From an uncultured Gammaproteobacteria bacterium (GTDB lineage: Bacteria > Patescibacteriota > Patescibacteriia > 2-12-FULL-57-11), in NCBI GenBank assembly GCA_964648865.1, contig CAZYLV010000001.1, positions 84,509 through 148,508 of the forward strand: 64,000 nt of DNA. Direction: 5' to 3'. A model generated the notes under the pieces. It ran no database searches. It had not been told where the DNA came from and saw only the letters and a list, made by a program, of their open reading frames with translations. Positions within the stretch are counted from its first letter, which is position 1; every line of letters starts with the position of its first letter. A program made the position numbers and the translations under genes. Shown one piece after another: positions 6,922 through 50,917 of this stretch.

Positions 6922-7004
6922 GACGTGACTCCTCGATTGTTCAGGAACGGAGGGTTCTCTCCCCCGACGGAGGGTGCGCCGCTCTGCCGGAGGGAAAACG
7001 GATG

Positions 7005-7976
7005 TCAGCGGACGCTGCGGACGAGCGCCTCGACGTCGGAACGGATGTCCTGGTCGGCGCTGGCATTCACCATGAGGGTGGCGTACTGCGGATTGGCACG
7101 GGCGGGGAAGAGATAGGAGACCATGCGGACGTCCCCTCCATACCGGGAGGCATCGTGCGTCATGCGATAGATGCCGTCGGCGATCGGCTCCCAGGAGACG
7201 ATCCTGAAGGGTTGCGCCAAGGCCATGGCCGCGGTCTGAGCGGACGAGAAGTCGGCGGACCCCGGTCGCACCGTGAAATACATCGGCGTGCCCTCACCGA
7301 CACCTTCACTGTAGTCGACGGAAGCTGCGGTGAGGGACACGCGCTCCTCGTCCGTGAATCCCAGCGTCACCCGCTTGCCGGCATCGATGCCGACAAGCTC
7401 CCGTGACACGCGCACGTCGCCCCATCGTACCGGGTAATCGAACGAGAGCCCCACGTCCGCATCCGTGTACGTCTTCGTGGCGGAGGGCGCGCACTCGATG
7501 CAGTCCTCCTGCTCGATACGCGTTGCGATGTCCGAGACCCTGAGCAGCTCGGCGACCGGCACCGGACGGCGGAGCGTATAGCGCACGCAGGGCGCGCGCC
7601 CGTCCTCGCAGCGGTAGCCGATGCGCTCAAGCACCTCGCGGTCGGCGTCGGTCGCATCGGCGGACAGGACGACGCGCGAGGCAGCGATGTACATCGCCTC
7701 CTCTCCCCCGAAAAGCGCATCGAGCCGCGATGTCCCGCACTGGTGGGCGGTCAGCAACGCGCCGACGGTCTTGAGATGCGAGAACCGCTGCGCGACCGGC
7801 AACGTCTCGGCATCATCCGCGACGGCCACGCCGCACGCCTCGGCGTCCGAATAGACGTCCGCCTGGGACGACACTTCTGAAACGGGTGTCGACGGCTGCT
7901 CCGCGACGGGATTCACGCACCCGGCTCCGGCGAGCAGCAGGGCGGTTGCCAGACCGAGGACTGTTCGACGCTCCAT
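7005..7976 (-). CDS. hypothetical lipoprotein
   Basis: N-terminus MERRTVLGLATALLLAGAGC has a signal peptide and lipobox. No other motif recognised. Confidence 0.55.
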   Translation of the reverse strand: MERRTVLGLATALLLAGAGCVNPVAEQPSTPVSEVSSQADVYSDAEACGVAVADDAETLPVAQRFSHLKTVGALLTAHQCGTSRLDALFGGEEAMYIAASRVVLSADATDADREVLERIGYRCEDGRAPCVRYTLRRPVPVAELLRVSDIATRIEQEDCIECAPSATKTYTDADVGLSFDYPVRWGDVRVSRELVGIDAGKRVTLGFTDEERVSLTAASVDYSEGVGEGTPMYFTVRPGSADFSSAQTAAMALAQPFRIVSWEPIADGIYRMTHDASRYGGDVRMVSYLFPARANPQYATLMVNASADQDIRSDVEALVRSVR

Positions 7977-8569
7977 ACGAAGGGGTCAAGGCGTAAGATC
8001 CTGGCGTATCACGACTGCCGTACGCCTGCAAGCCCACGATGCCCCGGCGGCAGGTCTGGGAGCGGAACGGTCGAAACACCCCAGGACTGCCGCCGGTCCT
8101 TGCCGTAAGGCCGGAGCGCGGTCCCGCCGACCGCCGAGGTTGCCCGCCGCGGCACCCATCCATGGGCGCAAGCGCGGTGTGGGCGCTCGTGCGGAGCGAG
8201 GCTGCATCGCTCGCAGGAAACGGCACCGTGTCCAGTACGTCCGGGCAGGCGGATGGCGGTCCGCGGGAGGTACGTTCTCCGTCGCAAGCGACGGTCTCCC
8301 CTCCTCGCGGCATCCCTCCGGTGGTCGCACCTGTCACCCGAGGGAATCCGCCGCGCCTGCTTCTGTATCCAGCGTACGTCCCTCGCGCAGAGCGTCAATG
8401 CGCGCCCGAGTGTACACCGCCGCTGGACACGAACTGTCCCGCCGAGCGACCGACGGAGCGCCTGCAGTTAGCCTTGTCTGTGCACTTTTCGCCGATTCTA
8501 TCCACAGGAAAAACGGGTCGAGCGAAAAAAGTTTATCCCCAGGAGGAGTTGTGATAGGGTGGCCGCGAT

Positions 8570-9022
8570 ATGGAACCCTGCATCTTCTGCGCCATCATTG
8601 CGGGTAAAGCGCCCGCACATCGCATCTGGGAAGACGACCGTCACCTGGCGTTCCTCTCGATTTTCCCGAACACGCCCGGCTTCAGCGTCGTCATCACCAA
8701 AGAACACCAGCCGAGCTATGTCTTCGATCTCGCGGACGACGTGTTCCTCGCGCTCATCCGTGCTGCCCGGACCGTCGGAAAGCTGCTCGACGCCCGACTC
8801 GAGGATGTGGGCCGCACCGGCATGATCGCCGAGGGGTTCGGCGTCGACCATGCGCACATCAAGCTCTTCCCGATGCACGGCACGAAGATGAAGGACTGGC
8901 GGCCCATCACATCAGACGTCGACAAGTACTTCGAACGGTACGAGGGCTACATCTCCTCCCACGACCATAAACGCGCCGACGACGCGGAACTGGAACGGTT
9001 GGCGAAGAGGATCCGCGGATAA
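8570..9022 (+). CDS. HIT family (histidine triad) hydrolase
   Basis: Histidine triad HAHIKLFP. Overall HINT-like sequence (CIFCAII..., FPNTPGFSVVITKEH). Confidence 0.85.
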   Translation: MEPCIFCAIIAGKAPAHRIWEDDRHLAFLSIFPNTPGFSVVITKEHQPSYVFDLADDVFLALIRAARTVGKLLDARLEDVGRTGMIAEGFGVDHAHIKLFPMHGTKMKDWRPITSDVDKYFERYEGYISSHDHKRADDAELERLAKRIRG

Positions 9023-9044
9023 AAAAACCGACCCGGAGGTCGGT
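9021..9044. terminator. bidirectional rho-independent terminator between convergent genes
   Basis: AAAAAAA-ACCGACC-cgga-GGTCGGT. A T-run is present on the minus strand and an A-tract on the plus strand. Confidence 0.5.
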
Positions 9045-9050
9045 GCCGCG

Positions 9051-10091
9051 TCAGATGCGGCAGAACAGCGAGAACGCGGTGTCGTAGAAAATGCTTTCCG
9101 CGGCCCGCGTTTTCGTTTCCGGCACATGCGCCGCGAGGGCACCACCGATCGCCGCGAGCTGCTGCCAGTGGGCATGCGTCGCGCCGGCGGCGATGGCAGC
9201 CGACTCCCGCTGCTCGGCAGGGTCCGCCCAATGGTACGGATACGGCGTCGCCAGGCGCTCTCCCTTTGCCGGATGCGCGTAGATCGCGGCGCGGATCAGG
9301 TTGAGCGGTTCATCGGAGCCGAAGACGATGCGCTCCGTGCCGAAGGCCTCGAGCGCCATGCCGACGACCTCGGCCGACGGGATCATCGCCGTATCCATGT
9401 AGACCCGCTCGCGTCGGGCGACCGCCGCGTAGGCCTCGCGCAGTCCCGGCACCGGCATGTGCGGCAGGCCGAGATGCGCCAGGACCACGACAAGCCGCGG
9501 GAAGCGGTCGAGCACCCCGAGCAGCTCGTCGACGCAGCGGGTGATCATCCGCGGCAGGTGCAGGATGATCGGCACGCCCCGCGCCTGGGCCTCCTCGAGC
9601 ACCGGCTCAGGGAAGACCTCGAGGATGCGCTGCGCCGGCGGGGAGAAGTACTGGTAGTACATCTTGAGCGCGGCGACCCGCGGATGCCCCAGGAGCGCGA
9701 CCGTGTAGTCGATCTCCGTAGGGATGCCGTAGAGGGCGATGCGGTCCTGCGGCGGCGCCTGCCCGAGCAGGTAGGCGTTGGCCTCGCGATGCCGGATGCC
9801 GCGGTAGGGCATCGGGAAACGTAGGGCCGCGACCTGCCTGCCCGGGTAGAGGAGCGCCTGCAGCCCGGCCGACTGCTCCAACGTGAAGCTCGGGAAGGTC
9901 GTCATCATGTGCCCGAGCAGCGGCGCGTCGATCGTCCCGACGTGCTCGGGCAGGTTGGTGTGCACGTGGGCGTCGAAGATGCGCTCCGGCAGCCAGTCGG
10001 CAGCACGGCGGCGCAACTCCTCTTCCTCCGGCGTCAGCGCCTGCGCGTATGCCAGATACTTGTCGACAGGGATCTCCATCGTGTCCTCCAT
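9051..10091 (-). CDS. amidohydrolase-2 family metal-dependent hydrolase (TIM-barrel)
   Basis: DAHVH metal-binding start motif and a GSDEP motif late in the protein. I moved the start to ATG 10091 (MEDTMEIP); the track's upstream extension is Arg/Pro junk. Confidence 0.5.
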   Translation of the reverse strand: MEDTMEIPVDKYLAYAQALTPEEEELRRRAADWLPERIFDAHVHTNLPEHVGTIDAPLLGHMMTTFPSFTLEQSAGLQALLYPGRQVAALRFPMPYRGIRHREANAYLLGQAPPQDRIALYGIPTEIDYTVALLGHPRVAALKMYYQYFSPPAQRILEVFPEPVLEEAQARGVPIILHLPRMITRCVDELLGVLDRFPRLVVVLAHLGLPHMPVPGLREAYAAVARRERVYMDTAMIPSAEVVGMALEAFGTERIVFGSDEPLNLIRAAIYAHPAKGERLATPYPYHWADPAEQRESAAIAAGATHAHWQQLAAIGGALAAHVPETKTRAAESIFYDTAFSLFCRI

Positions 10092-10092
10092 A

Positions 10093-10122
10093 AAAAGAGG
10101 GACCAGCGTTGCCGCCGGTCCC
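10093..10122 (-). terminator. terminator-like hairpin after aspS
   Basis: GGGACC...GGTCCC stem followed by TCTTTTT on the minus strand. It sits immediately before the ATG at 10091. Confidence 0.45.
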
Positions 10123-10143
10123 GGTTCCTCCCGCCCGCGCCCG

Positions 10144-11457
10144 TCAGGGCTCGAGGCGGTTCGGCCCGCGGTAGAGGTAGGTGACCTCACGCACGTTGCT
10201 GACCCCGAGCACGGTCATCAGCAACCGCGTCAGCCCGAGACCGAAGCCTCCGTGCGGCGGGCAGCCGTAGCGGAAGCAGTTCATGTACCCGGACATCGTC
10301 TCCGGAGCGAGCCCCTTCTCGAGCGCCTGCACGTGCAGGAGCCCGTAGCGGTGCTCGCGCTGCGCCCCGGTCGTCACCTCGAGCCCCTTCCACAGGAGAT
10401 CGAAGCTCTTGGTGAGTCCCGGCGCGTCGGCGTGCCGCATGTGGTAGAACGGACGCGCACTGATCGGATAGTCCGTCACGAAGACGAACTCGTGCCCGGT
10501 CCGCTCGCGGACGTCCTGGTACGCGCGGCGCTCGCCCTCCGGATCGAGGTCGCCCTTGTGCTCGCGGGCGATCTCGTGCCCCCCGCGCGCGGCGATCCCG
10601 TACGCCTCGGCCACCGTGATCTTGGGGAACGGCAGCGTCGGCACGACGACCTCGACCCCGAAATGCTCGCGGATCGCCTCGCCGTGCCGCTCCTTGACCG
10701 CGGCGAGCGCGGCCTGAAGCAGCCCGGCCTCGAAGTCCATCACGTCGTGATGCGACGTGATCCACGACATCTCGACGTCGATGCTCGTGAACTCCGTGTC
10801 GTGACGGGCGGTGAACGAGGGATTGGCCCGGAAGACCGGGCCGATCTCGAACACCCGGTCGAACCCCGCCGCCATCGCCAGCTGCTTGTAGAACTGCGGC
10901 GACTGGGCGAGGCAGGCCATGCGGTCGAAGTACTCGACGCGGAAGAGCTCCGCGCCGGACTCGCTGGCGCTGGCCATCAGCTTCGGCGAGTGGATCTCGA
11001 CGAAGCCGTGGGTGCGCCAGTGCTCGCGCATGGCGTGCTCGAGCGTGGTCTGGACGTCGAAGACCAGCCGGTTGCGCGGGGAGCGGAGGTCGAGGAACCG
11101 CCAGTCCATGCGCAGCTCGGGGGAGGAGTTCTGGTCGATCGGCAGGTGCGGCTCGCACGCGCCGACGACCGCGACCTCCTCGGCCACCAGCTCGATCCCG
11201 CCCAGCTTGGCGTGCGGGTTCTCGACGACCTTCCCGGTGACCGTCACGGCGGACTCGTGGGTGAGTCCGGCGATGGCGACGGCGATCGGGTCCTCGCCCT
11301 CACGCTTCTGGTGGATGACCTGCAGCCTGCCGGTGTGGTCGCGCAGGACGATGAACTGCATGCGCTTCTGGTCGCGCATCCGCTCCACCCATCCGGCGAC
11401 CGTCACCGTCTTGCCCGCGGCGCCACGGATGGCGCCGATCAACGTTCTCGTTTCCAC
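10144..11457 (-). CDS. aspS: aspartate--tRNA ligase, archaeal/eukaryal-type size (class IIb)
   Basis: Motif 2 region FRANPSFTARHDTEFTSIDVEMSW matches the AspRS-type EFT.ID.E.SF pattern. Motif 3 is GGFGLGLTRLLM. GTG start at 11457 follows an AAGGAG SD. About 438 aa. Confidence 0.8.
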   Translation of the reverse strand: METRTLIGAIRGAAGKTVTVAGWVERMRDQKRMQFIVLRDHTGRLQVIHQKREGEDPIAVAIAGLTHESAVTVTGKVVENPHAKLGGIELVAEEVAVVGACEPHLPIDQNSSPELRMDWRFLDLRSPRNRLVFDVQTTLEHAMREHWRTHGFVEIHSPKLMASASESGAELFRVEYFDRMACLAQSPQFYKQLAMAAGFDRVFEIGPVFRANPSFTARHDTEFTSIDVEMSWITSHHDVMDFEAGLLQAALAAVKERHGEAIREHFGVEVVVPTLPFPKITVAEAYGIAARGGHEIAREHKGDLDPEGERRAYQDVRERTGHEFVFVTDYPISARPFYHMRHADAPGLTKSFDLLWKGLEVTTGAQREHRYGLLHVQALEKGLAPETMSGYMNCFRYGCPPHGGFGLGLTRLLMTVLGVSNVREVTYLYRGPNRLEP

Positions 11458-11479
11458 GTTGCCTTTCTCCTTCTTCGTC

Positions 11480-12871
11480 TCAGGGGTAGATCTTGCGTCG
11501 GAAGGTGCGCGGGAACGGGATGGCATCCCGCACGTGCGGGATGTTGAGCAGCCAGCGGAGGAACCGCTCGACGCCCATGCCGAACCCGCCGTGCGGCGGG
11601 CAGCCGGCCTCCCGCAACTCGCGCACCCAGTCGTAGCGGGCGTCGCCCGCCTTACCCTTCTCGGTCATGCGCTCGTCCAGCTCGGGCAGGGTGGTGACCT
11701 TCTCGGCCACGCCGAGCAGCTCCCCGAACCCGTCCGTCGCGATGAGGTCCGCCGTCATCGTCAACTCCGCATCCGTAGGGTCGACGCTGTACGGGAAGGG
11801 CTCCACGGACCGTGGATTGCCGACCACCCAGAACGGCGTATCGAAACGCCGTGCCAGCGCGGTCTCCTCGACGGAGCCGAGGCTCTCGCCGAAGACGATG
11901 GCACTCCCCTCCTTCCGGAGGATGGCCACCGCCTCTCGGTAGGTCAGGCGCGGGTAGGGCGTCCGGAGCCCCTCCGTCCGCATCCCCCGCCCGACCGCCT
12001 CCGCCAGCGGACCGCAGCGCTCGACGGCGTGCCGCGTCAGGTCGCTGATGAGCGACTCGACGTCAGCCATCAGGCCCTCGCGGTCCGTGAACATCACCTC
12101 CGCCTTGATGTGCCAGTACTCCATCAGGTGCCGTTTGCTCTTGCTCTCCTCCCCGCGGAAGCTCGGCCCGATGTTGTAGACACGGTCGAAGGCGTGCGCG
12201 GCGGCCTCCAGGTAGAAGCCGACGCACTGGGTGAGATACGCATCCTGCTCGCCGACGGTCACGGAGATGGCCGTAGGGCCGTCGTAGAGCGGGAGCGTGG
12301 TGAGCAGCGGCGCGGTGATCTCCAGGAACTCGCGCTCCCGGAACCACTGATGCACCGCGCCCATCATCTCGTGCCGGAACCGCAGGATCGCCCGCACGCG
12401 CTCGTTGCGCAGGTACAGGTGGCGGTTCCGCAGGAGATGGTCCGCGTGGCGCTCGTCGAAGATATCGATGTCCGCGCGCAGCTTGGGGCTGAACCGCTTG
12501 GTGGCGCGACTGACGACCTCGAACGTGTCCATGTGGACCTCGACGCGATGCGGCCCGGGGACGGTCCGTACCACGCCGGTGACGGCGAGCACCGACTCGA
12601 CGGGCAAGCCCGCCACGGTGCGCAACGCCTCCTTGGCCATGCGGCCGCACTCCAGGACGACCTGCAGCGTCCCGGTGGTGTCCGCGAGGGTGAGGAAGAG
12701 CACCTGGCCCAACCTCCGCTTGGACGTCAACCATCCGGTGACCCGCACGCGCGTTTCGGGCGCGAGGCCACCAAGGACAGCGGCGATACGGTACTGCTGC
12801 ATCTGCCTCTCCTTGGCCATTTCGTCGACGGGATTGTCAACGATCTCGCCCCTTGCGGAGCCGGTCAGCAT
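11480..12871 (-). CDS. asnS: asparagine--tRNA ligase (class IIb)
   Basis: FRGEESKSKRHLMEYWHIKAEVMF matches the AsnRS-type RHL.E.W...EV.F pattern. C-terminal GCPPHGGFGMGVERFLRWL...IPFPR. The start was trimmed to ATG 12871; the track's upstream extension is low-complexity junk. Confidence 0.75.
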   Translation of the reverse strand: MLTGSARGEIVDNPVDEMAKERQMQQYRIAAVLGGLAPETRVRVTGWLTSKRRLGQVLFLTLADTTGTLQVVLECGRMAKEALRTVAGLPVESVLAVTGVVRTVPGPHRVEVHMDTFEVVSRATKRFSPKLRADIDIFDERHADHLLRNRHLYLRNERVRAILRFRHEMMGAVHQWFREREFLEITAPLLTTLPLYDGPTAISVTVGEQDAYLTQCVGFYLEAAAHAFDRVYNIGPSFRGEESKSKRHLMEYWHIKAEVMFTDREGLMADVESLISDLTRHAVERCGPLAEAVGRGMRTEGLRTPYPRLTYREAVAILRKEGSAIVFGESLGSVEETALARRFDTPFWVVGNPRSVEPFPYSVDPTDAELTMTADLIATDGFGELLGVAEKVTTLPELDERMTEKGKAGDARYDWVRELREAGCPPHGGFGMGVERFLRWLLNIPHVRDAIPFPRTFRRKIYP

Positions 12872-12907
12872 GGCAAATGACCTCTTCTCTGTCAAGGACC
12901 CGCCGAA

Positions 12908-12933
12908 TAAAAAAGGGCCGTGAAAACGGACCC
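12908..12933 (-). terminator. rho-independent terminator after the methyltransferase gene
   Basis: GGGTCCG-ttttca-CGGCCC followed by TTTTTTATT on the minus strand. Confidence 0.5.
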
Positions 12934-12944
12934 GAAGGAGCGTG

Positions 12945-13727
12945 CTATGCGGGCACTCTCCCGTAGATGCCGCCGCGCGGCACCTGGATGAGGAACTTCT
13001 CGTCCGCCGGCAACTTCCGGTAGACGCGGACGAAGTACCCCAGGTGGCGACCGTTGTCGTTGAAGAGCCGCAGACGCGCCATCCAGGCATCGCGCAGCTC
13101 CGGCGGGAACGGCTCGACGTACGTCCGCATGCGCTCGGCATCCGCGGGGACGACGTCGTACCGCGACTCGTGCTCGAGTTGCAGCCGATGGCCGTCGAAC
13201 AGTCCGCTCCAGTAGGCGCGATCGTATCCGGCATCCAGGTGCGTCCCGACGTCGCGGTTGAAGGCCTCGACCAACGCCGCGGACGGCGGCGTGCGGTAGT
13301 AGTACAGCGCCGTGAGCAGGGAGCCCCACGGCCGCAGCACGCGCACGGCCTCGGCGATGTGCGCGCGCCGCACGTCCGCGGGCACGAACGGCAGATGCCC
13401 GCCGACCACGACGTGCGTGAACGCACCGTCGAGGAACCGCAACCGACCGGCGTCGGCGGGCATGAACATGACGCGGTCCGCGATGCCGGAGTCGACGTTC
13501 GCCTTGGCCGCGGCGATGCTCGCCGCGTGCCGATCGATCCCGCAGCAGGCCGCGCGCGTGTATCGCGCGAGCTCGATCGTGACGAAGCCCGTCGAGCAGC
13601 CAATCTCGAGGACCCGCGCATCCGGACCCAGGAAGGAGTGGCGGATCCACTCCTTCACCGTATCGTAGCTGCCGGGCGGCGTGTTGACCTGACCCGATCG
13701 GACCACGAGGGAGAGGTAATCGGTCAC
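12945..13727 (-). CDS. class I SAM-dependent methyltransferase
   Basis: Motif I VLEIGCSTGFVTIELA and an acidic motif II region. GTG start. Confidence 0.7.
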   Translation of the reverse strand: MTDYLSLVVRSGQVNTPPGSYDTVKEWIRHSFLGPDARVLEIGCSTGFVTIELARYTRAACCGIDRHAASIAAAKANVDSGIADRVMFMPADAGRLRFLDGAFTHVVVGGHLPFVPADVRRAHIAEAVRVLRPWGSLLTALYYYRTPPSAALVEAFNRDVGTHLDAGYDRAYWSGLFDGHRLQLEHESRYDVVPADAERMRTYVEPFPPELRDAWMARLRLFNDNGRHLGYFVRVYRKLPADEKFLIQVPRGGIYGRVPA

Positions 13728-13793
13728 TTCTTGTTTTCTCCGCAGCAGGTTGTCAGGAACCTCCTCGACCCTATACGCGGATCGAGGAGCCGG

Positions 13794-14603
13794 TCAAGGC
13801 GTGAGGTCCGTCGGCGTCCGGGGGAAAAGCGTGACCGCCACGGAGGAAGGCGCCCCCAGCAGCGCCTGCATCAGCCGCGCGGGGCTGATGCTGACGCCGC
13901 CGTGCGGGGGCATGCCGGAGCGGAACATCTCCAGATACGGGCGAAGCCGCTTCAAGGAAACGCCTGCGGCCTTGGCCTGCGCCATCAGCCGCGCGGGCCG
14001 ATGCTCGCGCAGGCCGCCGCTGCCGATCTCGACCCCGGCCAAGAGCACGTCGAAGCACTGGCTCCGTGCGGCGCGGCCGGAACCTGATCGGCGGAAGTAG
14101 AATGCGCGCTCGTGCGCCGGGAACGGCCCCGCGAACGTCAGGTCACGGACGCGACGTTCCCCACCTAGCCGTCTCTTGGCGACGGCGCGCAGCGTCTCCG
14201 TCATGACCTCGCGGACCAGGACCTCCAGCCGCCGCAGATCGGTCAGCCCAGCAATCTCCAGGTCCCATGTCGTGAACTCGGTCATCAGACCCGGGGCGCG
14301 CTTGGACGGCTTGCGCAGGTTCTCCCCGACGGCGAACACCTTGCGCAGGCCCATGCCGATGGCCAGCTGCTTGTAGGCCTGGGGCGACTGGGCGAGGTAC
14401 GCCTCTTTTCCGTAGTAGTCGACCGTGAACGCCCCGCCGTACGGTTCGAGCACCATCGCCGTGAAGATCGGGCAATGAATCTGCAAGAAACCGCGCCCTA
14501 GGAGCGCGGTACGGAACCCGTGCTCAAGCAGCGTCTGCAGCTCGATGATCTGGCGGACGTTTTTCATACAGCCACGATACCTGGCCTGCCCGGACTTGAA
14601 CAT
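13794..14603 (-). CDS. truncated class IIb aaRS catalytic-core paralog (AsnA/AS-AR-like, no anticodon-binding domain)
   Basis: AYLAQSPQAYKQLAI and EFTTWDLEIAG match the AspRS/AsnRS core. C-terminal GMPPHGGVSISPARLM...LFPRTP. It is only 269 aa, and just ~120 nt of non-coding DNA lies upstream, so an N-terminal OB domain cannot be encoded. Confidence 0.6.
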   Translation of the reverse strand: MFKSGQARYRGCMKNVRQIIELQTLLEHGFRTALLGRGFLQIHCPIFTAMVLEPYGGAFTVDYYGKEAYLAQSPQAYKQLAIGMGLRKVFAVGENLRKPSKRAPGLMTEFTTWDLEIAGLTDLRRLEVLVREVMTETLRAVAKRRLGGERRVRDLTFAGPFPAHERAFYFRRSGSGRAARSQCFDVLLAGVEIGSGGLREHRPARLMAQAKAAGVSLKRLRPYLEMFRSGMPPHGGVSISPARLMQALLGAPSSVAVTLFPRTPTDLTP

Positions 14604-14725
14604 GACCGGCGACCGACCTTCTCTGTCGAGTCCTGGTTTACAGCGGATTCCCGCCCACGGTTCAGGCCCAGCTGACTGTCACGTCTTACGCGCTCTTCCT
14701 GTTCACCCCCAGTGGACATCTTTCC

Positions 14726-14754
14726 TTGACTTCCCCCGGATTTGGGCGTATGCC
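14726..14754 (+). promoter_or_regulatory. sigma70-like promoter TTGACT-N17-TATGCC (copy A of the duplicated cassette)
   Basis: Read directly. It is followed by the conserved leader hairpin GGGGCttgGCCCC, GGAGGA and GTG 14803. Confidence 0.45.
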
Positions 14755-14802
14755 TGAGGTAGGTCTGGAACAACGTGGGGCTTGGCCCCGGAGGATAGAA
14801 CA

Positions 14803-15609
14803 GTGCGGAACATCTTCTCGATGGCCGCCCTCGGGGCGGCCGTTCTCCTGGCGAGCTGCGGCCCGCCGATCCCCCCGCCCATCGACTGCGGGCGGCCGGG
14901 GATGCCGGCCGAGGGCTGCTTCGAGCTCACGCTCACGAGCGAGCCCAGCGGTGCCTCCGTCTTCATGAACGGGGAGCCCGCCAGCGCGAGCGGCGTGACG
15001 CCGGTCGAGCAGCTTGCCGGGCTGTCGGGGCACTACACGATCGAGCTCGTGCTCGACGGCTACGAGCGGTACATGGTCGACCTCGAGCTCGACGGCATCG
15101 AAATGCACCACGCGGTGCTCGTGCCCGATGCCGCGGCCATGGGGACGCTCGACGTCTCCGCGGACGTGGCGGGCGGCATGCTCATGGTCGACGGCGCGGC
15201 CGTCGGGGTCATGGTGGACATGCCGATGTCCGTCATGGTGCCCGAGGGCAGCCACGTGGTGACGGTGCAGCTCGCCGGCTACGTGGCGACCACGCGGACC
15301 GCCGAGGTCGCCCGCGACATGACGACGATGGTCGACATCGCCGTGGGCCGGGATCTCACCGGAGCGTGGAGCTGTGACAGCGAAGTCGACGGCCGCTTCA
15401 CGGCCGACGTGACGATGAACATCGCCACGACGGTCAGCTCGATCCAGGCGCTCGGCTTCGCGGCCTGGGGCATCGAGGTCACCGGCCTGGTGCTGTCGTC
15501 ACCCATCCCCGACGTCACTGTCGCGGGGTCGGTCGCGGCCGACGGCAGCGCGCTCATGTGGACCACCACGGACCGTATGGGCTCGTACGACGCCACGTGC
15601 ACGCGCTAG
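14803..15609 (+). CDS. secreted lipoprotein with PEGA-like beta domain
   Basis: GTG start 7 nt after GGAGGA. Signal peptide VRNIFSMAALGAAVLLASCG with lipobox. A PEGA-like segment (GHYTIELVLDGYERY) is present. Confidence 0.65.
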   Translation: MRNIFSMAALGAAVLLASCGPPIPPPIDCGRPGMPAEGCFELTLTSEPSGASVFMNGEPASASGVTPVEQLAGLSGHYTIELVLDGYERYMVDLELDGIEMHHAVLVPDAAAMGTLDVSADVAGGMLMVDGAAVGVMVDMPMSVMVPEGSHVVTVQLAGYVATTRTAEVARDMTTMVDIAVGRDLTGAWSCDSEVDGRFTADVTMNIATTVSSIQALGFAAWGIEVTGLVLSSPIPDVTVAGSVAADGSALMWTTTDRMGSYDATCTR

Positions 15610-15630
15610 ACGTCCTCGCGCGACGTCGCA

Positions 15631-15660
15631 CCGATCAGCCAACGCTGGTCGGCTTTTTCT
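15631..15660 (+). terminator. rho-independent terminator
   Basis: CCGATCAGCC-aac-GCTGGTCGG followed by CTTTTTCT. Confidence 0.5.
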
Positions 15661-15670
15661 ATATCAACCC

Positions 15671-15699
15671 TTGACTTTTCCTCACCGCGAGAGTATGCA
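15671..15699 (+). promoter_or_regulatory. sigma70-like promoter TTGACT-N17-TATGCA (copy B of the duplicated cassette)
   Basis: Read directly. The -10 overlaps the track's ATG 15699, which therefore cannot be the start. The conserved leader and GTG 15747 follow. Confidence 0.45.
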
Positions 15700-15746
15700 T
15701 GAGAGACGAACCTGAACAATGGGGTCTCGCCCCGGAGGATAGATAC

Positions 15747-16415
15747 GTGAGGAACATCTTCTCGATGGCCCCGCTGAGCGGGGCGCTTCTCATCTCGCTC
15801 GCGGGAGCGACGGCGCTCGCCCAGCCGGCGACTTCGGGTGGTGGAGGCGGACACGGATGGCGTACCGGCCATGCCCCGTCCGCCGACGGCATCGACGGCT
15901 CCCTGCTGCCGTGGGTGCTCGTGGCCGTCTGCCTGGCCGTGACCATCGCTGTCTTCGTGCGCGCACGCCGCGCGAAGGTCGTGAGCTCGGCCGTCTCCTC
16001 GACCAACGAGGCGTCGCGCGTCCCGACGTTCGCGCTGCGGGCGGTTTCTGGGGTCCTGACGTGGTTGGGCGGGCTCGCCGCGGTCCTAGGGCTCCTCGCA
16101 GGCACGGTAATCATCATCGCCGGCCTCGCGGCGGAGCAGGGCGTCCTCGGCCTCCTCGGCGGGGCGGTGCCCGCGATCGTCGGCGGCGTCGTGGGCCTCG
16201 TCGTCATGGCGGTGGGGCAACTGCTCGCCTGCATCACCGCGATCGAGGCGCACGCGCGATCCGTCGCCGAACGGGTCGCCGCCAACGTGGAGGAGACCGC
16301 GCGGCTTCGCGCCGTCGTCATGGGACGGCTCCCTTCGCCCTCTGCCGGGACGGAAGCCGAAGCCACGCCTACGAATGGAGGTGCGGCATCCCAGGCGCAC
16401 CGCGCCGCGATCTGA
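15747..16415 (+). CDS. polytopic membrane protein with cleavable signal peptide
   Basis: GTG start after GGAGGA. N-terminus VRNIFSMAPLSGALLISLAGATALA. Four or more hydrophobic helices with Gly/Ala-rich packing faces. Confidence 0.6.
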   Translation: MRNIFSMAPLSGALLISLAGATALAQPATSGGGGGHGWRTGHAPSADGIDGSLLPWVLVAVCLAVTIAVFVRARRAKVVSSAVSSTNEASRVPTFALRAVSGVLTWLGGLAAVLGLLAGTVIIIAGLAAEQGVLGLLGGAVPAIVGGVVGLVVMAVGQLLACITAIEAHARSVAERVAANVEETARLRAVVMGRLPSPSAGTEAEATPTNGGAASQAHRAAI

Positions 16416-16498
16416 CCATCGACGCAACATCGATGCGGCTGCCGGTACGCGCGTAGAGCACTGCGCCCGCCAGGCGCCGACGCGAGCGGCGCCGCACA

Positions 16499-16534
16499 CC
16501 GACCAGCCCAAAGCTGGTCGGCTCTTCTTTTTTT
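16499..16534 (+). terminator. rho-independent terminator
   Basis: CCGACCAGC-ccaaa-GCTGGTCGG followed by CTCTTCTTTTTTT. It is near-identical to the terminator at 15631. Confidence 0.55.
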
Positions 16535-16542
16535 CGGGAATG

Positions 16543-16576
16543 AAAAAGCGGCTCGACCTCCAGGGAGGGAGCCGCT
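16543..16576 (-). terminator. rho-independent terminator after the second M23 peptidase gene
   Basis: AGCGGCTC...GAGCCGCT stem with TTTTT on the minus strand. Confidence 0.5.
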
Positions 16577-16581
16577 GCGTT

Positions 16582-19251
16582 TCACCGCAGGTTGAGGATG
16601 AAGACACAGGATGCGGTCGGCTCCGGCGAGTCGACCGTACAGACCACGGACATCGGGACTCCGTCCACGAGTACCTCGGGGACGACGCCGCGACGAAGTC
16701 TGCAGCCCGTTGCCGCAGTCCCCTCGCACTCGAAGTCCACACCAGTGCTCCGGGGATAGATTCCCTGGACGCGGTAGAGGTCGCGACGGACGCCGGTGAA
16801 CACGGTCCATGCGCAACTCTCGTGCGGAGGATAGGGATAGAGACTCCACCCGCTCCGGTCCGGCAGGTCCGTCTCGAGGAAGGCGGAAGCGCCCGGACAC
16901 CAGCGGACCTCGACGCGCATGCCGCCGCTGTCCGCATCTCGTCCGGGATCGATGCCACCATCCCGTGTACCGGTATCGGGAGGTCCTGCATCCCTCCCGC
17001 CGGCATCCGTTCCTGCATCAGGTGTTCCCGCATCGATGGACAGGGGCGCACAGACACCCTCGTCCACTAACCCGTCGCAGTCGTCATCGAGCCCGTTGCA
17101 TGACTCGGGGCCCGCGATGGCGCGCTCGGGATCGGTCGGCGCGCAGTCGCCGATGTCGGTGATGCCGTCGCCGTCGGTGTCCCGAAGCTGACAGCCGTAT
17201 GCCGCGGAGCAGGAATGCAGCGCGTCGCAGCGGCTGTCGTCGGGGGTATGCACGCACGAGGTCCCCACGCACCGGTCGGCGGTGCAGGCGACGTCGTAGG
17301 TGCAGTGTTCGTCCAGAGTGCAGTACCCATGAGGCATGCATCCGGACGTCGGGTGGCAGTACTGCCCCGAGGGGCAGCGCTCGTCGAGCGGACGATGTTG
17401 GCAGCGATGGCTCGCATCGCACCAGTCATGGATGCAATCATCCCTGTCGCCGCACTGAGCGTCTGCGGTGCAGCCGCCCGCGATGCATGCCCCGGAGACG
17501 CAGTGCGCGTCACCGGAACAGGCGTTGCCGCAGCGCCCGCAGTTGAGATCGTCCGACGCCAGGTCGAACGGCTCATCCACGAGCAGGTCGCAGTCGTTGT
17601 CGCGGCCGTCGCAGCGCTCCGCGGCGTCCGGCCAGCTGGCCGGATCCGCGTCGTCGCAGTCCCGTCCGCCGCAGGATGTGGAGAGGTACCCGTCGCCGTC
17701 GGCGTCCGGACAGTCGCCGCCACCACCACCGATATCCGGATCGACTTCGTCAGGATAGCTGCTCAAACCATCCACGCAATCCGCAGTGCTGACCGTCGTC
17801 ACCGGATGCGGGCCGCCAATCGGACAGACACGCAGCGAATCGACGTCAAGCGACCCACCGAACCCCCTAGCCAACACGCTCGTGGAACCGTCAGAGATCA
17901 TGATCACATCAGAGGAATCCCCCTCGAGATCAAAGCCCATCTGACGCGCCACCTCCGCGTCCAGAGTGTAGGCGATACCGCCGTTCGTGATGAGCGTGAA
18001 GTCCGACTGACCGTGTTCACGGACAAGCACGCCATCACGCAGATAGAGCTGCCCGCGCACAGGATACTCGCACCCGACGTACTCCGAGAGCACTTCGAGA
18101 TGCGAAAACCCGTAAGATCGCAGGAGCGCATGATAGGCGTGTTGGGACGACTCGAACGGAATCCGGTAACGCGAGAATTCCCCACGATCATCGATCGTAA
18201 GGAAAGTCTCAGTCACCATGCCCCAGCCAAGACGTCGATTGCAGGTCGTTACCCGCATCGTCACAGGAAGATCGATGACCGACCCATGGGCAACGCAAGA
18301 TACATCCTCCACGGGAAGGACGCGACCGAAAGGATCTCCGGGTTCAAGGTAGAGCCGACGTGAGCGCAGGTCATCCTCGGTTTCGAGCCATCGGAGCCGG
18401 CCGTCATCATCACGCAGGTAGACGCGACTGTCCACGATTGTTTCGGACCTACTGTCATCAGGAAGCTTGACGAGGATGCCGACCGGCGGATTCAGGAACG
18501 CCAAACGATGAATCACCTCGCGGGGCTCACCAAAGTCGAGCAAGCGGGAGGATCCTTCGCCAGGCCGGTTGTCGTAACCACGGAGGTAATATCCACCGTC
18601 GACTCTCCGAGCTTGTGCTTCCGACATGAGCCGGATGCCCAGATGCAAGTGGGGCAGGCCGTCCCCATTGTGGTCATCGGGGTCGGCGTAGTACGGCTCG
18701 GGACACATCGAGTCGTTGACGTACCCGATAATGTCCTGCTCCGTGACCCAATCGCCGACGCGCCAGGGGAGTTCGGGGCCATCGCGCTCACGCGACTTCC
18801 TCAGGTGTCCGTAGACCGAGAGGATGTAGCGGGTACGAACCATCCTGGTCATGGTGCCTGCACCGGCGAGGAACTCGAACTCGCGTCCTAGATCATGTTC
18901 GATGCCCACATAGAGTTCGCCATAACCGGTTCCAAGCGTGCCCTGTGCACGATAGTGCACAATCCTCCCCGGACCGATGGGACGCACCGGGGTTCCGACC
19001 GGAAGAGCGATATCCTCTCCGAGGTGGTTCCCGTCCCGATAGAAGTACCGACGCAGGTGACTGCCCGGAATATACAGCGACGGGTGTACGGGGTAACGGG
19101 CGAAGTACATAATCCTCGGTCCACGTTCAGTCACCGATCCTGAGAGCGTACTGGACGCCTCGTCATCGAGACTTCCGATACACCCAGGGATGCTCGTTGG
19201 CAGAATGAGGACGGGCAGCACGAAGCACAGAGCCTCACGAATATGACACAT
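16582..19251 (-). CDS. secreted M23 family metallopeptidase with MopE-type Cys-rich repeats, paralog of 5002..6921
   Basis: M23 signatures GNHLGEDIALPVGTPVRPIGPG, GYGELYVGIEHD and LPHLHLGIRL. A shared middle-domain motif (YLRDDDGRLRWLETEDDLRSRRLY here, FLVDDDGRLRWLRTEDDLRSRRLF in the paralog). C-terminal region with DCDDADP, CDGRDNDCDLLVDE and CNGLDDDCDGLVDE. AAGGAG SD 8 nt upstream. Confidence 0.75.
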   Translation of the reverse strand: MCHIREALCFVLPVLILPTSIPGCIGSLDDEASSTLSGSVTERGPRIMYFARYPVHPSLYIPGSHLRRYFYRDGNHLGEDIALPVGTPVRPIGPGRIVHYRAQGTLGTGYGELYVGIEHDLGREFEFLAGAGTMTRMVRTRYILSVYGHLRKSRERDGPELPWRVGDWVTEQDIIGYVNDSMCPEPYYADPDDHNGDGLPHLHLGIRLMSEAQARRVDGGYYLRGYDNRPGEGSSRLLDFGEPREVIHRLAFLNPPVGILVKLPDDSRSETIVDSRVYLRDDDGRLRWLETEDDLRSRRLYLEPGDPFGRVLPVEDVSCVAHGSVIDLPVTMRVTTCNRRLGWGMVTETFLTIDDRGEFSRYRIPFESSQHAYHALLRSYGFSHLEVLSEYVGCEYPVRGQLYLRDGVLVREHGQSDFTLITNGGIAYTLDAEVARQMGFDLEGDSSDVIMISDGSTSVLARGFGGSLDVDSLRVCPIGGPHPVTTVSTADCVDGLSSYPDEVDPDIGGGGGDCPDADGDGYLSTSCGGRDCDDADPASWPDAAERCDGRDNDCDLLVDEPFDLASDDLNCGRCGNACSGDAHCVSGACIAGGCTADAQCGDRDDCIHDWCDASHRCQHRPLDERCPSGQYCHPTSGCMPHGYCTLDEHCTYDVACTADRCVGTSCVHTPDDSRCDALHSCSAAYGCQLRDTDGDGITDIGDCAPTDPERAIAGPESCNGLDDDCDGLVDEGVCAPLSIDAGTPDAGTDAGGRDAGPPDTGTRDGGIDPGRDADSGGMRVEVRWCPGASAFLETDLPDRSGWSLYPYPPHESCAWTVFTGVRRDLYRVQGIYPRSTGVDFECEGTAATGCRLRRGVVPEVLVDGVPMSVVCTVDSPEPTASCVFILNLR

Positions 19252-19353
19252 GGATACTTCTCCTTGTTGTCAAGGTACTCCTTGACGATTCGATATCACG
19301 AAGGGAAGAAGGGATCCTTACCTCCCCTCGTAAGTCGAATCGTCTCCACTTCC

Positions 19354-19375
19354 AAAAAAACCGATTTCCCTATCG
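19354..19375 (-). terminator. weak terminator overlapping the stop of the lipoprotein gene
   Basis: CGAT-agggaa-ATCG followed by GTTTTTTT on the minus strand. Confidence 0.4.
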
Positions 19376-20044
19376 CTGAGCGATCGTCTGGGCCACGAGA
19401 TCCGTGTCTTTGGTCAACTGCTCGATGGTATCGATGGCTTCACCCACTCCAGCGATTTCCAAGTCGTACTCGGCAAAATTCAGCCAGATCCTAACGACCT
19501 TGTCCCCAACGGTCACATGAACCACACGAAGCAACCTGATCACCTTCACTTCATCTGCATCCCTGACTGCGGCAAGGACGTCGAAAAACTTTCCATCCGC
19601 GACGCCATCGATGTATGTCTCCTCCCCATCTTTCGTGAATCGAACGGTGTACTCGATTTCCTCTAGAGCCTGGCGCCCACCGATTGTCGTCAGGCGACGG
19701 AATGGACGTAGCGCACCTTCCTCAATATCGTTGGCGCGAAGCCTGTCTTGATACAATTCCCATCCAAAAAAGTTCTCACCGTCGTCAAAGTAATCGATGG
19801 TCATCGTGGCCGGAATCGTCGCGTCGGAATCAGTGATGTAGTACTGCTTCCTGCCAGCGTCATGCGCGACGGTAAAGCCTGCTGGATACTCGAAAACCAA
19901 GTCACCCTGATCAAACGAGAGCTCGGCTCCCTGATCTTTGGCGTTGGAATTCGTGCCGGGCGACTGGATCAGTCGGAACACGGAGCACCCCGTCCCGAGA
20001 AGAACGAGAGCCGCGACGAAAGCGATGGGACGGAGATAGCGCAT
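19370..20044 (-). CDS. hypothetical lipoprotein
   Basis: The start was trimmed to ATG 20044. N-terminus MRYLRPIAFVAALVLLGTGCS has a signal peptide and lipobox. The track's upstream extension is Arg/His-rich junk. TTGACA-N17-TACGCA lies upstream. Confidence 0.6.
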   Translation of the reverse strand: MRYLRPIAFVAALVLLGTGCSVFRLIQSPGTNSNAKDQGAELSFDQGDLVFEYPAGFTVAHDAGRKQYYITDSDATIPATMTIDYFDDGENFFGWELYQDRLRANDIEEGALRPFRRLTTIGGRQALEEIEYTVRFTKDGEETYIDGVADGKFFDVLAAVRDADEVKVIRLLRVVHVTVGDKVVRIWLNFAEYDLEIAGVGEAIDTIEQLTKDTDLVAQTIAQR

Positions 20045-20145: not shown

Positions 20146-23100
20146 CTACTCGTGCGGGTACACGATGATGTCCCCGGCGTATTCCGTGAATGGCGTATTG
20201 ACTCTGATGTTGCCGGGGGTTAGTGCGCACTCGTTCGTCGTCACTCCACCAGAAGTGAGCGTCGAATTTGTAAGCGCGTTGTAGCAGCTGCTGGCTGCAG
20301 TTCCACCCGGAGCGTCGCACGTCCCGTTGCAGAAGCCCCAGTTGTCCTGCACCTGGACGCGGGGACGATAGACGCAGGCCTCGCGGCCGTCCGGCTGCAC
20401 GCGCACGCAATTGTTGGTGCCGTCCCAGCAGCGGGCCGTGGGGTCGCTGGAGCAGATGTAGGCGTGGTTGTAGGCGAAGGGGGCGGTGCTGTCGCAGGCG
20501 TCCGAGGACGTGCCGAAGGTCGTGCCGTCGCAGCGGGACTGCAGCTCGCGTGCCTCGGTGCCGTCGGGACGTGTCGTGACACGGTACTCGTACCCGCGGC
20601 GGTTCTTGTAGCTGGAGTTGGGGTTGTTGCCCGAGGGATTGGTGCCGTCGCCCCAGTCCACGATGACGTTGCGGATGGGCATCTGATCGTTCTGGGCGTA
20701 GGCGAAGAAGCGGACCGAGACCTGCTTGAAGCCGTTGCCGCCCACGATGTCGCCCACCGACTGTCCGTTGACCGTGATGCGGTCCGTGGCGCCCTCGAAG
20801 CACTGGTTGCTGGTGTTGCAGCCTTCCACGGCGAGCACCACCGGCGGTTGGCCGACGATGTGCGACTCGTCGTAGACGAGCGACGCGGGATCGTAGTCCA
20901 CCTCGGCCGGCAGCGGCACGCCCGGCGCGAAGACGCGGTAGTCGGCGTTGACGTTGCTGTTGACGTCGGTGCGGTGATAGAGGAAGAGGCTCTGCGTGGC
21001 GGCGAAGAGCTGCCGGAGCCGCTCGAGCACGTACTCGAGGTTCGGCAGGCCTGTGCCGGCGGCGTCCGCGCCGTAGCTGCGGCAGGTGACCCCATCGACG
21101 TCGCAGACGCGGCCGGTACCGGTGCCGCTATTCTGGCAGATGCCCGCGGTCGGCCGCTCCGGATCGGTCGGCACGCAGCGCAGGTGCGCGCAATCGCTTT
21201 CGAAGACACAGGCGCGCGAACCGATGCTGCTGTCGGCGTTGACGCAGGTGCCGACGATCTCGCGGTCGTGCGGGTCGCTGCGGCGGCGCACGCCGTCAAT
21301 CGGCCAGCGGCTGTCACAGGCGCGCGGGCTGGTGGCCCAGGTGTCCACGCCGACCGGGCCCGGATCGACCGGCGTCGTGCAGAAGCCGGCGTTCAGGTCC
21401 ACGTTGAACTCGCAGGTGCCCAGGCCCAACCCCGGGCAGGGATCGGTACCGCCTGAGGGGACGGTGCAGCGCTGCAGGCAGGCGCGCACGCGGCCGCTGC
21501 CTTGGTCGCACTGGGGCTGGGACGCTCCGGGCGCGGCCGAGCAGGCCACGTCGCCGTCCTCGCCCACGGGGCAGGTGATCCCGGTGCCGCCCGCGGTGAT
21601 GGTGGCGTAGGGACGCGATTCGGCGTTGGAGACCTCCGTGGCACCGGCCGGGCAGGTGCCGCCCACGGTCGGCAGGTTATAGGCGCGTGTGCCGTCGACA
21701 CGGCAGGTGAGATGCTCGACCGGGCTGTAGTCGACGTTGGCAGCGGTCTGCTCGTCGATATTGGCCGTCACGGCGCGGCCGTAGGGCTGCAGCGCGTCCG
21801 GCGTCTGGGCCCAGGTGTAGCGCAACTCCGGCGTCTCCGTCCTGATGCCGATGGGGTCGGTGATGGTGTAACCCGCGCCAGGGGGCGTTGTGCGGCCGTT
21901 GCCCAGCCGCCCGGTGTAGACCTTGTTGAGCACCGGCGAACCGACGGTCGCCACGGTCACCGCGGCCTCGCAACCGAGGAACGGCGTGCCCGGGGAGTTG
22001 GGGCCGTCCGGGATGGGCGTGTCGAGGGCCACGCAGTCGGCGTAGTGTCCGAGCGCGCTGTCCGGCTCGATGCCGGTCGCGGTGATGGTCACGTCATCAT
22101 CCGGATAATCGAGCCCGGCGCTCTGCTTGAGCGTCTTCCCCTCAAGGAGCCAGACCTCGGCGTAGCTGGCCGGTGCCTGGATATAGGTCGGGATCTGCGC
22201 GGGCGTCACATAGCCGATGCCGTCTTCATCGCAGTGACTGGTGGTCGCCTGGTTGTACCGCTGCATCGGGAGACCCTGTTCGCGTGGCGGTTCGCAGGGC
22301 CGCTTGAGCGGGTCGGCCATGTGGCGCGAGTTGCGGGGCACGCAGATGTAGTGGTTGCCGGACTCGTATGTGGTGCGGCGGCCGGGGCAGTCCTCGACGC
22401 CGGCCGCATCGTGGGAGCTAGAAGGAACCCCGGCCATGACCACGAAGGCCTCGTCCGCCGGGCAGTCGCGCTCCGGGTTGCCCTGTTCGTCGTCGATGAG
22501 GATCTTGGGCTCAACACAGCCGCCCGACCCCGCCCTGCAGTAGGGCGTGCATTCGGGGATGACGTCCGAAAGGGTGTTCTCCGCGCAACCCATCACCACC
22601 GTGTAAGGATCGCCGCCTACCATGATGCTGTGGCTCGTGGTGTTGAACCGGGCGTAGGGTGCGATGCGCTTGTAGGCATCCGGCACGGCGCAATAGGCGG
22701 CGCCGGAGACGTTGAACCCGGCGTTGGGGTAATTGTTGTAGACGTCGACGTTGCCGGAGAGCCGGTCGACCGGCAGCCAGGTGATGCAGGCGCGGCCCGG
22801 CTGCTCGTAGCTGTGGTCCTGCAGCCCGTTGATGGAGAAACCGAGGTCGCGCTCCAGGCAGTAGCCCTCGATGCCCTGGACGGTGTTGACCCGGGAGATG
22901 GCGTTGCAGGTGCCGCCGGTGCCGCAGCTGGTGGCCGCGGACGGATCGCAATCCTGCTTGTCGCGCGGGCCGCCTTGGCAGAGGCCCGACGGAGGTGTCA
23001 CTTCGCTCACCGCGCTGCGGTAGATGGTGCCTTGTCCGCCCGTGTACTCGATCTTCTCGTAGGTGCACTCGCAATCCTGGCCGCGCTCGCAGAGCGTGGC

Positions 23101-43753: not shown

Positions 43754-44242
43754 CTACGGATACCGCCTGCGGTCCAACAGGTAATCGGAGATGTACTCCT
43801 TCCACCGCGCGCGCTGGTCCCTTGTCAGGTCCTTATAGCACCCGAGCTTTCCGGTGCAGCTCGGCGCGCCGCAGGCACAGCGACGGTCCTTTGCGGAGAG
43901 TTCGTCCCCGTAGCCGTACCCCAAGAACCCGTAATGCGTGACCACCTCCTCACCAGGCGCGATGTCCCGCATTGCCACGAACCACGTACGGTAACGGATG
44001 CCGACGTTCGGCTCGCACGAGTGGCAGATGTACTGGCAGAGATTGCCCTTCGGCAAGCGGGGTTCGATCTTCAGTTCGTGGTCGACGGGAATCGTATATG
44101 CGGTCGCCTCACCGACAAGCGGACCGAAGGCGACGAACACGAGGTCACCCTTCTTGAAGGCGCGCCTGGCGAAGAGACTTTTCCCATAGGGAGGCCGATG
44201 CTTGGCGATGACGTTATCCTCGATCCGATAACGCCTAGGCAT
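43754..44242 (-). CDS. SET domain protein (putative protein lysine methyltransferase)
   Basis: Core motifs CHSCEPN (NHSCxPN-like), EEVVTHYG (ELTxDY-like) and post-SET CACGAPSCTG. N-SET-like GKSLFARRAFKKGDLVF. The start was trimmed to MPRRYRIED. It overlaps the upstream gene by 8 nt. Confidence 0.75.
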   Translation of the reverse strand: MPRRYRIEDNVIAKHRPPYGKSLFARRAFKKGDLVFVAFGPLVGEATAYTIPVDHELKIEPRLPKGNLCQYICHSCEPNVGIRYRTWFVAMRDIAPGEEVVTHYGFLGYGYGDELSAKDRRCACGAPSCTGKLGCYKDLTRDQRARWKEYISDYLLDRRRYP

Positions 44243-46414: not shown

Positions 46415-46450
46415 AGAAAAGCGCCTCCAGCGTAGCCGAGGCACCGGGCG

Positions 46451-46843: not shown

Positions 46844-46863
46844 CCCCACCCGTTTTTTTGTCG

Positions 46864-47235: not shown

Positions 47236-47239
47236 GGGA

Positions 47240-47659: not shown

Positions 47660-47725
47660 AGGCAGCCGAAAGTGTGCAAAAAAACGCGGCACCTCGTCAA
47701 GGAGGTGCCGCGCCGCGGATGACGG

Positions 47726-48501: not shown

Positions 48502-48503
48502 GG

Positions 48504-48580: not shown

Positions 48581-48627
48581 GGTGCGGACGTCCTCCGCAC
48601 GCAGGATACACCCCGGCGCGTCCGCCC

Positions 48628-50775: not shown

Positions 50776-50793
50776 ATGGCCCCAGTATACAAG

Positions 50794-50820: not shown

Positions 50821-50821
50821 C

Positions 50822-50906: not shown

Positions 50907-50917
50907 GCAGGTTGTCT

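Follow-up and report, generated by a model that had tools for sequence, protein, structure and literature searches.

Surface lipoprotein genes of the Borrelia upstream-homology-box (UHB)/Erp type include chimeras that are held to have arisen by recombination. In Borrelia burgdorferi, the genes of this type (OspE/OspF/Elp) encode otherwise dissimilar surface lipoproteins and share similar promoter sequences, the UHB (PMC7002432), and the title of a 1999 reference listed in PMC10016077 indicates that these dissimilar lipoproteins share leader peptides as well. At the Mycoplasma loci vpma, vsp and vsa, the 5' untranslated region (UTR) and the signal-peptide regions are conserved across clustered surface lipoprotein genes whose mature parts differ; each locus has one promoter, and a neighbouring tyrosine recombinase (Xer1, Mbr or HvsR) produces inversions at sites in the 5' UTR (PMC2268961). 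Here we analyze two adjacent genes for exported proteins, at positions 14726 to 16534 of a 64-kb stretch of DNA (the window; contig CAZYLV010000001.1) from an uncultured member of the Patescibacteria (Candidate Phyla Radiation, CPR), a group with so few cultivated members that its gene expression signals and the evolution of its surface proteins have hardly been studied.

The interpretation that we favor, as probable although by no means certain, is that the locus consists of two adjacent, separately transcribed single-gene units, unit A (14726-15660) and unit B (15671-16534), both on the forward strand, which carry one paralogous module and one type of terminator. The module extends over about 115 nucleotides (nt), from the -35 hexamer to codon 13, and comprises a candidate sigma-70-like promoter, TTGACT-N17-TATGC(C/A), a 5' UTR of about 40 nt with a GC hairpin of 5 base pairs (H1) placed directly before a strong Shine-Dalgarno (SD) sequence, and a GTG start codon. 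On its coding side, it includes the signal-peptide n-region MRNIFSMA and a GC-rich hairpin of 7-8 base pairs (H3) that begins at the end of codon 7 and reaches codon 13. The expression unit of a PEGA-domain lipoprotein would have been duplicated or recombined, and the reading frame of the second unit would then have been replaced in frame, with the junction inside the signal peptide, just past H3. The second unit would be an expression slot, which in a sister species holds a different secreted protein behind a diverged promoter and leader, with the same type of terminator; any protein placed in the slot would receive the same promoter type, initiation region and n-region directing it to the Sec pathway.

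Gene 1 (14803..15609, forward strand) encodes a PEGA-domain lipoprotein of 268 amino acids with the signal peptide MRNIFSMAALGAAVLLAS, which ends before the C of a LASC lipobox. Its PEGA domains are detected with E = 4.9e-17, and the protein is 100% identical to an NCBI entry (P0005) and 85% identical to the protein of the sister species (P0006). Gene 2 (15747..16415, forward strand) encodes a membrane protein of 222 amino acids; its GTG start is the same as in the NCBI call (P0001), and the other candidate start, an ATG at 15699, falls within the -10 element and lacks an SD. Matching no Pfam or NCBIfam family, protein 2 combines a signal peptide and one transmembrane segment with a hydrophobic block of 75 residues. 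According to BLASTP, proteins 1 and 2 are similar over residues 1-20 only, which agrees with the description of the mature proteins as unrelated in a first-pass annotation of this DNA.

Three homologues of protein 2 could be detected, about 50% identical to it and with N-termini unrelated to its own. Their alignment with protein 2 starts at about residue 13 (..ALLISLAGATALAQP versus ..ALLHALVGSPAFAQP), directly past H3, and the two homologues whose contigs were inspected (P0002 and P0003) are encoded inside operons, with starts that overlap the upstream gene. Since the family homology begins right past H3 and the N-termini of the relatives differ, gene 2 is, on sequence grounds, a chimera in which the shared module supplies residues 1 to about 12 and the family of protein 2 the rest. 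Protein 2 retains the h- and c-regions of its own family's signal peptide, while the promoter, leader, start and first 12 or so codons of its gene are of the gene 1 type. The sister species, whose protein 1 is 85% identical, likewise has the module on gene 1; the module is therefore most simply regarded as native to gene 1, and we infer that it passed from gene 1 to gene 2. The homologues of protein 2 were also considered as possible carriers of the module, and were ruled out by their different N-termini and their operon context.

The sister species, represented by contig L006, has an equivalent two-unit design with a different protein in the second unit. Positions 14-2593 of L006 match 5942-8541 of the window, 2609-3630 match 14726-15751, a segment that takes in unit A together with the promoter and leader of the second unit, and 4404-4550 match 20146-20295. 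The homology for unit A starts exactly at the -35 hexamer and that with the window ends at the start codon of gene 2 (15751), after which the second unit of L006 encodes an unrelated protein of 232 amino acids with a signal peptide. Slot 2 in this contig is characterized by TTGACC-N18-TATGCC, a diverged leader (caaTGGGCGTCGCCGGAGGAGAGACATG) and the terminator CCGACCA..GCTGGTCGG. Upstream of H1, copy B of the module is 65% identical to the slot-2 leader of L006 versus 57% to copy A, and from H1 onward it is 84% identical to copy A versus 70% to the slot-2 leader; copy B is thus a mosaic, as its nearest relative switches at H1. With gene 2 being chimeric and a third, unrelated secreted protein occupying slot 2 of the sister species, the module can be described as portable. 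To this extent, the modular expression and export cassette proposed in the first-pass annotation is upheld; its suggestion of regulation through the leader hairpin is not supported, and neither is a wider, genome-wide cassette family.

Two further observations concern the comparison with the sister species. The gene 1 orthologues (14803-15609 versus 2686-3492 of L006) differ by 41 non-synonymous and 22 synonymous codon differences, which cluster in patches (codons 52-89 and 200-217) separated by stretches of 90-120 nt with 100% identity, among them codons 1-32; to judge from these sequences, protein 1 is a mosaic, fast-evolving surface protein. A 10-mer, CATGAGAGAC, found at and just downstream of the -10 element of unit B (15698-15707), also occurs at the slot-2 start codon of L006 (3623-3632). 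Its placement leads some gene callers to start protein 2 at the ATG at 15699 (MRDEPE..), and the L006 protein begins MRDTPR..; the sharing of this 10-mer is probably a coincidence, and it could also be microhomology left by a rearrangement.

The 5' regions of the two units were aligned after reading the region 14500-16800. The promoter-like element of unit A (14726..14754, forward strand) has a -35 hexamer TTGACT at 14726-14731, a 17-nt spacer and a -10 hexamer TATGCC at 14749-14754, and that of unit B (15671..15699, forward strand), which begins 11 nt past the terminator of unit A, has TTGACT at 15671-15676, a 17-nt spacer and TATGCA at 15694-15699. Compared with sigma-70 promoters, the -35 hexamer matches TTGACA at five of six positions and the spacer has 17 nt. 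The hexamers are conserved between the units, and only 7 of the 17 spacer positions are identical. In the 64 kb, the pattern TTGAC-N17-20-TATGC is found only at 14726-14753 and 15671-15698, against an expectation of 0.09, so the common promoter-like sequence that had been reported for the two genes is present at both and nowhere else. From these elements, we infer that both promoters may be active and that the two units would be co-regulated.

The SD sequence GGAGGA lies at 14790..14795 in unit A and at 15734..15739 in unit B, both on the forward strand, with the GTG start 7 nt further on in each case. In both units, the GGGG..CCCC leader hairpin abuts GGAGGATAGA, and the codons for RNIFSMA that follow the GTG are identical. 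A 42-nt pattern that extends from the 3' arm of the hairpin over the SD and the start through codon 8 has two exact matches, at 14785-14826 and 15729-15770, compared with 0.00 in shuffled sequences; the arrangement of hairpin arm, GGAGGA, GTG and identical first codons was therefore found in both copies, as had been claimed. The shared leader was also recovered, with a measured identity of 44 of 51 nt (86%) in place of the roughly 88% given before, and a repeat finder returned an ungapped pair of 72 nt with 79% identity (14776-14847 versus 15720-15791). By segment, the identity between A and B is 60% in the promoter (hexamers only), 57% from the -10 to H1, 84% from H1 to the start, 95% in codons 2-8 and 53% in codons 9-13. 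Although the first 8 codons are shared, as the first-pass annotation had noted, the module does not end there, and it runs to codon 13 as a conserved structure and not as a conserved sequence.

This structure is the hairpin H3, which in unit A (14823..14841, forward strand) has the form GGCCGCCC-ucg-GGGCGGCC, with 8 base pairs from the last base of codon 7 to codon 13, and in unit B (15768..15784, forward strand) the form GCCCCGC-uga-GCGGGGC, with 7 base pairs. In the ungapped alignment, the loop has an equal offset from the start in both copies, +29 to +31. The four positions at which the stems of A and B differ are all accounted for by two double changes that compensate each other, one of G-C to C-G and one of C-G to G-C, while controls in which the positions were slid give zero compensatory changes. 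Hairpins of this class, with at least 7 Watson-Crick pairs and a 3-nt loop, number only 18 in the 64 kb. H3 is the best-supported structure of the module and, as far as the alignment indicates, its 3' end; it could affect the stability of the mRNA, or initiation or early elongation at the GTG start. The leader hairpin H1 is formed by GGGGC-uug-GCCCC in unit A (14777..14789, forward strand), where its 3' arm abuts the SD and where it is predicted in every fold, and by GGGGU-cuc-GCCCC in unit B (15721..15733, forward strand). It has 5 pairs, and a one-sided change from C-G to U-G in copy B keeps the pairing; the loop is different in all three versions, and the SD is left uncovered. These hairpins may have a role in mRNA stability or translation.

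At the other end of the units, intrinsic terminators were called independently for both genes, each with a perfect 9-bp stem and a T-rich tail. The terminator of unit A (15631..15660, forward strand; stem 15631-15652) has the form CCGATCAGC-caac-GCTGGTCGG followed by a T-run, and that of unit B (16499..16534, forward strand; stem 16499-16521) the form CCGACCAGC-ccaaa-GCTGGTCGG followed by a T-run; they begin 22 and 84 nt past the respective stop codons. The common stem, CCGAYCAGC/GCTGGTCGG, has no other match in the window; near-identical terminators do end both genes, as had been described. Two similar terminators were observed on the reverse strand of the surrounding gene island: GGGACCGGCGGCAACGCTGGTCCC plus a T-run at 10093-10122, which has the 11-mer CAACGCTGGTC in common with the terminator of unit A, and, at 9027-9044, ACCGACC-tccg-GGTCGGT plus T7, which has the CCGACC/GGTCGG core in common. 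Elsewhere in the window, terminators have unrelated stems.

Selection on the elements of the module is suggested by the hexamers that are kept amid saturated spacers, by the stems that are kept with variable loops, and by the compensatory changes in H3. Several points nevertheless weigh against the interpretation of two separately transcribed units with a shared module. The -10 hexamers (TATGCC and TATGCA) lack the conserved final T, and a consensus scanner calls no promoter at either site; other promoter-like sites of the window (TTGAC-N17-20-TAnnnT, 8 versus 0.57 expected) carry this final T, and the promoters of units A and B may be weak or factor-dependent. The covariation of H3 comes from a single comparison of A with B, and 63 of 500 shuffles reach the observed value. 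The copies amount to two in the window and one orthologous pair in L006, and a larger family is without support. The near-identity of the leader and of codons 1-8 could result from a recent short gene-conversion tract and not from selection, and under the strong codon bias of this DNA (GC3 about 0.9), N, I and F are in any case likely to be encoded by identical codons.

The origin of this near-identity is the central point of a neutral alternative, which we regard as unlikely when taken as the full account. It holds that the 5' regions are old tandem paralogues, now direct repeats 944 bp apart, and that the 45-nt core from H1 to codon 8 was recently homogenized by gene conversion and contains only an ordinary SD and start. 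The mosaic pattern of identity is what such an event would leave, with 84-95% in the core versus 53-60% on either side, and with copy B nearer to slot 2 of L006 upstream of H1 and nearer to copy A from H1 on; moreover, stretches of perfect identity occur elsewhere in the gene 1 orthologues, for example at 15150-15239, so that patchiness is common at this locus. However, hexamers that are kept within saturated spacers, stems that pair while their loops vary and the compensatory changes in H3 point to selection on the elements themselves, and gene conversion leaves unexplained why the junction with a foreign frame falls exactly where H3 ends. Gene conversion is compatible with a shared, selected module and does not exclude it, and part of the near-identity of the core may come from a recent short tract.

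A second alternative, which we consider quite improbable, is that the module is a translational control RNA: codons 4-6 (AUCUUCU) would pair with the SD (GGAGGAU) and sequester it in a helix with two G-U pairs (H2), with H1 and H3 as clamps. Both exported proteins would then be translated only under certain conditions, set for instance by temperature or by a trans-acting factor. In gene 1, the complementary codons lie at 14812..14818 on the forward strand and could form H2 with the start codon in its loop; by our own estimate for this base composition, the probability that a 7-nt complement to the SD arises by chance in the first 40 nt of a coding sequence is roughly 0.03. In copy A, the minimum-energy structure is a fold of three hairpins in which H2 is predicted with P about 0.75 and the SD is mostly paired (unpaired P = 0.07), and the 68-nt core has a folding z of -2.2; the maintenance of H3 by compensatory changes is also in line with this alternative. 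In copy B, on the other hand, no SD-sequestering helix is predicted and the SD is unpaired with P = 0.67, and the slot-2 leader of the sister species lacks the helix. The sequence of H2 is invariant and so carries no covariation information. Folding z-scores of stretches of 71-84 nt are mostly near those of shuffles (+0.2 to -1.5), those of longer transcripts are near 0, and Rfam gave only chance-level matches, far below the gathering scores, in 14000-17000. These results, together with an H1 that stays off the SD, lend no support to regulation through the leader hairpin, which the first-pass annotation had considered possible. In the structure prediction and covariation analysis that it had called for, compensatory changes were seen in H3, and H2 is invariant and predicted in copy A only.

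Another idea, which goes beyond the interpretation that we favor and which we hold to be a doubtful one, is that the 5' module (from the -35 to H3) and the terminator act as portable homology arms, forming recombinase-independent cassette slots for surface and secreted genes of CPR bacteria. It fits the observation that in two lineages different frames lie between flanks of the same type and are joined at or near the coding start. Such slots would take up different genes, for example after DNA uptake, and would be distinct from integrons and from inversion in Mycoplasma. Site-specific recombination for surface variation, of the vpma/vsp/vsa type or integron-like, with the 5' block or the 3' hairpins as recombinase targets, is very improbable, since the tandem units, the conserved block over the 5' UTR and signal peptide that recalls vpma/vsp (PMC2268961), the hairpin-forming element past each reading frame and the slot-2 frame that differs between two related species stand against 40 scanned open reading frames of the window without an integrase, recombinase or transposase domain, repeats that are direct and not inverted with a promoter-like element on each unit, 3' hairpins that lead into T-runs without attC-like features, and one arrangement in all the assemblies described next.

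The locus occurs with an identical arrangement in 15 Logan assemblies that are independent of one another and belong to several sample series, by which an assembly artefact is ruled out. Among the contigs with identical flanking proteins no strain variation was observed, and there is one arrangement throughout. In the search for further copies, the pattern of the SD plus the MRNIFSMA codons had 0 matches in 185,579 species-representative genomes, and a similar SD/MRNIFSMA pattern had 0 matches in JGI metagenomes. The promoter-to-SD pattern had 4 matches in the JGI metagenomes, all of them due to chance in low-GC sequence that has neither the hairpin nor the start; in viral contigs it had 0. 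Because these patterns fit the copies of the window, the zero matches imply that the window species and the sister species are also absent from those collections; at the protein level, a local test indicated that a match to MRNIFSMA plus the signal peptide would score E of about 44-120 at database size. A wider cassette family was thus not found, with two copies in the 64 kb, the rest of this genome lying outside the search, and none in the species-representative genomes, the JGI metagenomes or the viral contigs.

The GC content of the window (68%) and its ValRS indicate a high-GC genome of the Patescibacteria, and values of about 68% are unusual for CPR bacteria. The ValRS encoded in the window (58341-61076) is 77% identical to those of the metagenome-assembled genomes (MAGs) H41-bin083_1 and FW602_bin.41, both labelled Patescibacteria group bacterium, and the next matches, about 55% identical, include Uhrbacteria- and Magasanikbacteria-labelled MAGs, mixed with others labelled uncultured Gammaproteobacteria. 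The comparison of the window with L006 places both units in an island of cell-surface-protein genes located between rearranged blocks. Upstream of the units, the island encodes an M23 peptidase-like protein and a lipoprotein, and downstream of them a paralogous M23/MopE protein, another lipoprotein and the 3' end of the gene for a 3019-amino-acid protein.

The two paralogous M23-peptidase-like proteins with MopE motifs (5002-6921 upstream and 16582-19251, reverse strand, downstream of the units) are 31% identical over about 420 residues. Each of their genes follows a lipoprotein gene, and the two lipoproteins have no detectable relatedness to each other; the sister species carries only the left pair of M23/MopE and lipoprotein genes on L006. 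A 6.2-kb block of the window (8542-14725) is absent from L006 at the equivalent position. It encodes a HIT protein, an amidohydrolase, a SAM methyltransferase and three adjacent class-II synthetase paralogues: a bona fide non-discriminating AspRS of 437 amino acids, above the NCBIfam cutoff, a divergent AsnRS-like paralogue of 463 amino acids, below the cutoff, and an AspRS-like protein of 269 amino acids that consists of the catalytic domain only.

Downstream, the GC content dips to 57% at 18001-20000 (surroundings 66-73%), a segment that contains the 5' part of a gene for an 889-amino-acid protein and the gene for a 224-amino-acid lipoprotein and that may have been acquired recently. The 3019-amino-acid protein (20146-29205, reverse strand) has an N-terminal hydrophobic segment and a single weak CBM_4_9 match, and a protein of 914 amino acids (2118-4862, reverse strand), with long hydrophobic stretches, matches no family; in CPR bacteria, surface proteins as large as these are typical. 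Further along the window, the genes for CysRS, ArgRS, TyrRS and ValRS lie within about 16 kb (44987-61076), all on the minus strand. Among them are genes for two histidine kinases, a bactofilin and a pyruvoyl-type histidine decarboxylase-like protein (53795-55186), and a gene for a SET-domain protein (43754-44575) lies near this stretch.

As it stands, the finding is modest and concerns a single locus. It offers a candidate set of promoter, 5' UTR, SD and terminator for a high-GC CPR lineage, it presents a gene fusion at the level of the signal peptide whose junction is marked by a covarying hairpin, and it documents one position that holds different reading frames in sister species. Should the same flanks turn up around other genes in more genomes, this would point to a simple recombination route by which episymbionts change their exported proteins.

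Among the known systems, some resemble the locus in one aspect only. Like the SD-sequestering RNA thermometers (ROSE, fourU), it has a possible helix between the SD and a U-rich segment, with G-U pairs and the start codon nearby; unlike in them, the anti-SD segment is part of the coding region downstream of the SD, only one of the two copies has a predicted helix, and no RNA family matches. The cassettes of integrons have no promoter, end in attC sites that IntI recognises, and adjoin intI/attI/Pc. The locus is similar to integron arrays in having tandem single-gene units that end in a hairpin element, with a content that differs between relatives at a given position, but integron cassettes are ruled out by ordinary terminator hairpins without attC, by the units' own promoter-like element and SD, and by the lack of an integrase. 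The loci vpma, vsp and vsa of Mycoplasma differ from it by their single promoter, as here each unit has a promoter-like element, the repeats are direct, no recombinase is encoded in the scanned open reading frames of the 64 kb, and no variants were seen. The closest counterpart is the group of Borrelia UHB/Erp genes, which the locus resembles in the conserved upstream and promoter sequence before several genes (the two genes of the window and the orthologous and diverged copies of L006) and in a common signal or leader peptide on unrelated mature proteins. The Borrelia genes number a dozen or so copies, spread over many cp32 prophage plasmids, and operator-binding regulators are known for them, in contrast to the two tandem chromosomal copies in a CPR host described here, which in addition share the terminator and have a covarying hairpin at the point of fusion. 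We conclude that the locus is a small new CPR example of a known design of surface-protein genes and not a new type of system.

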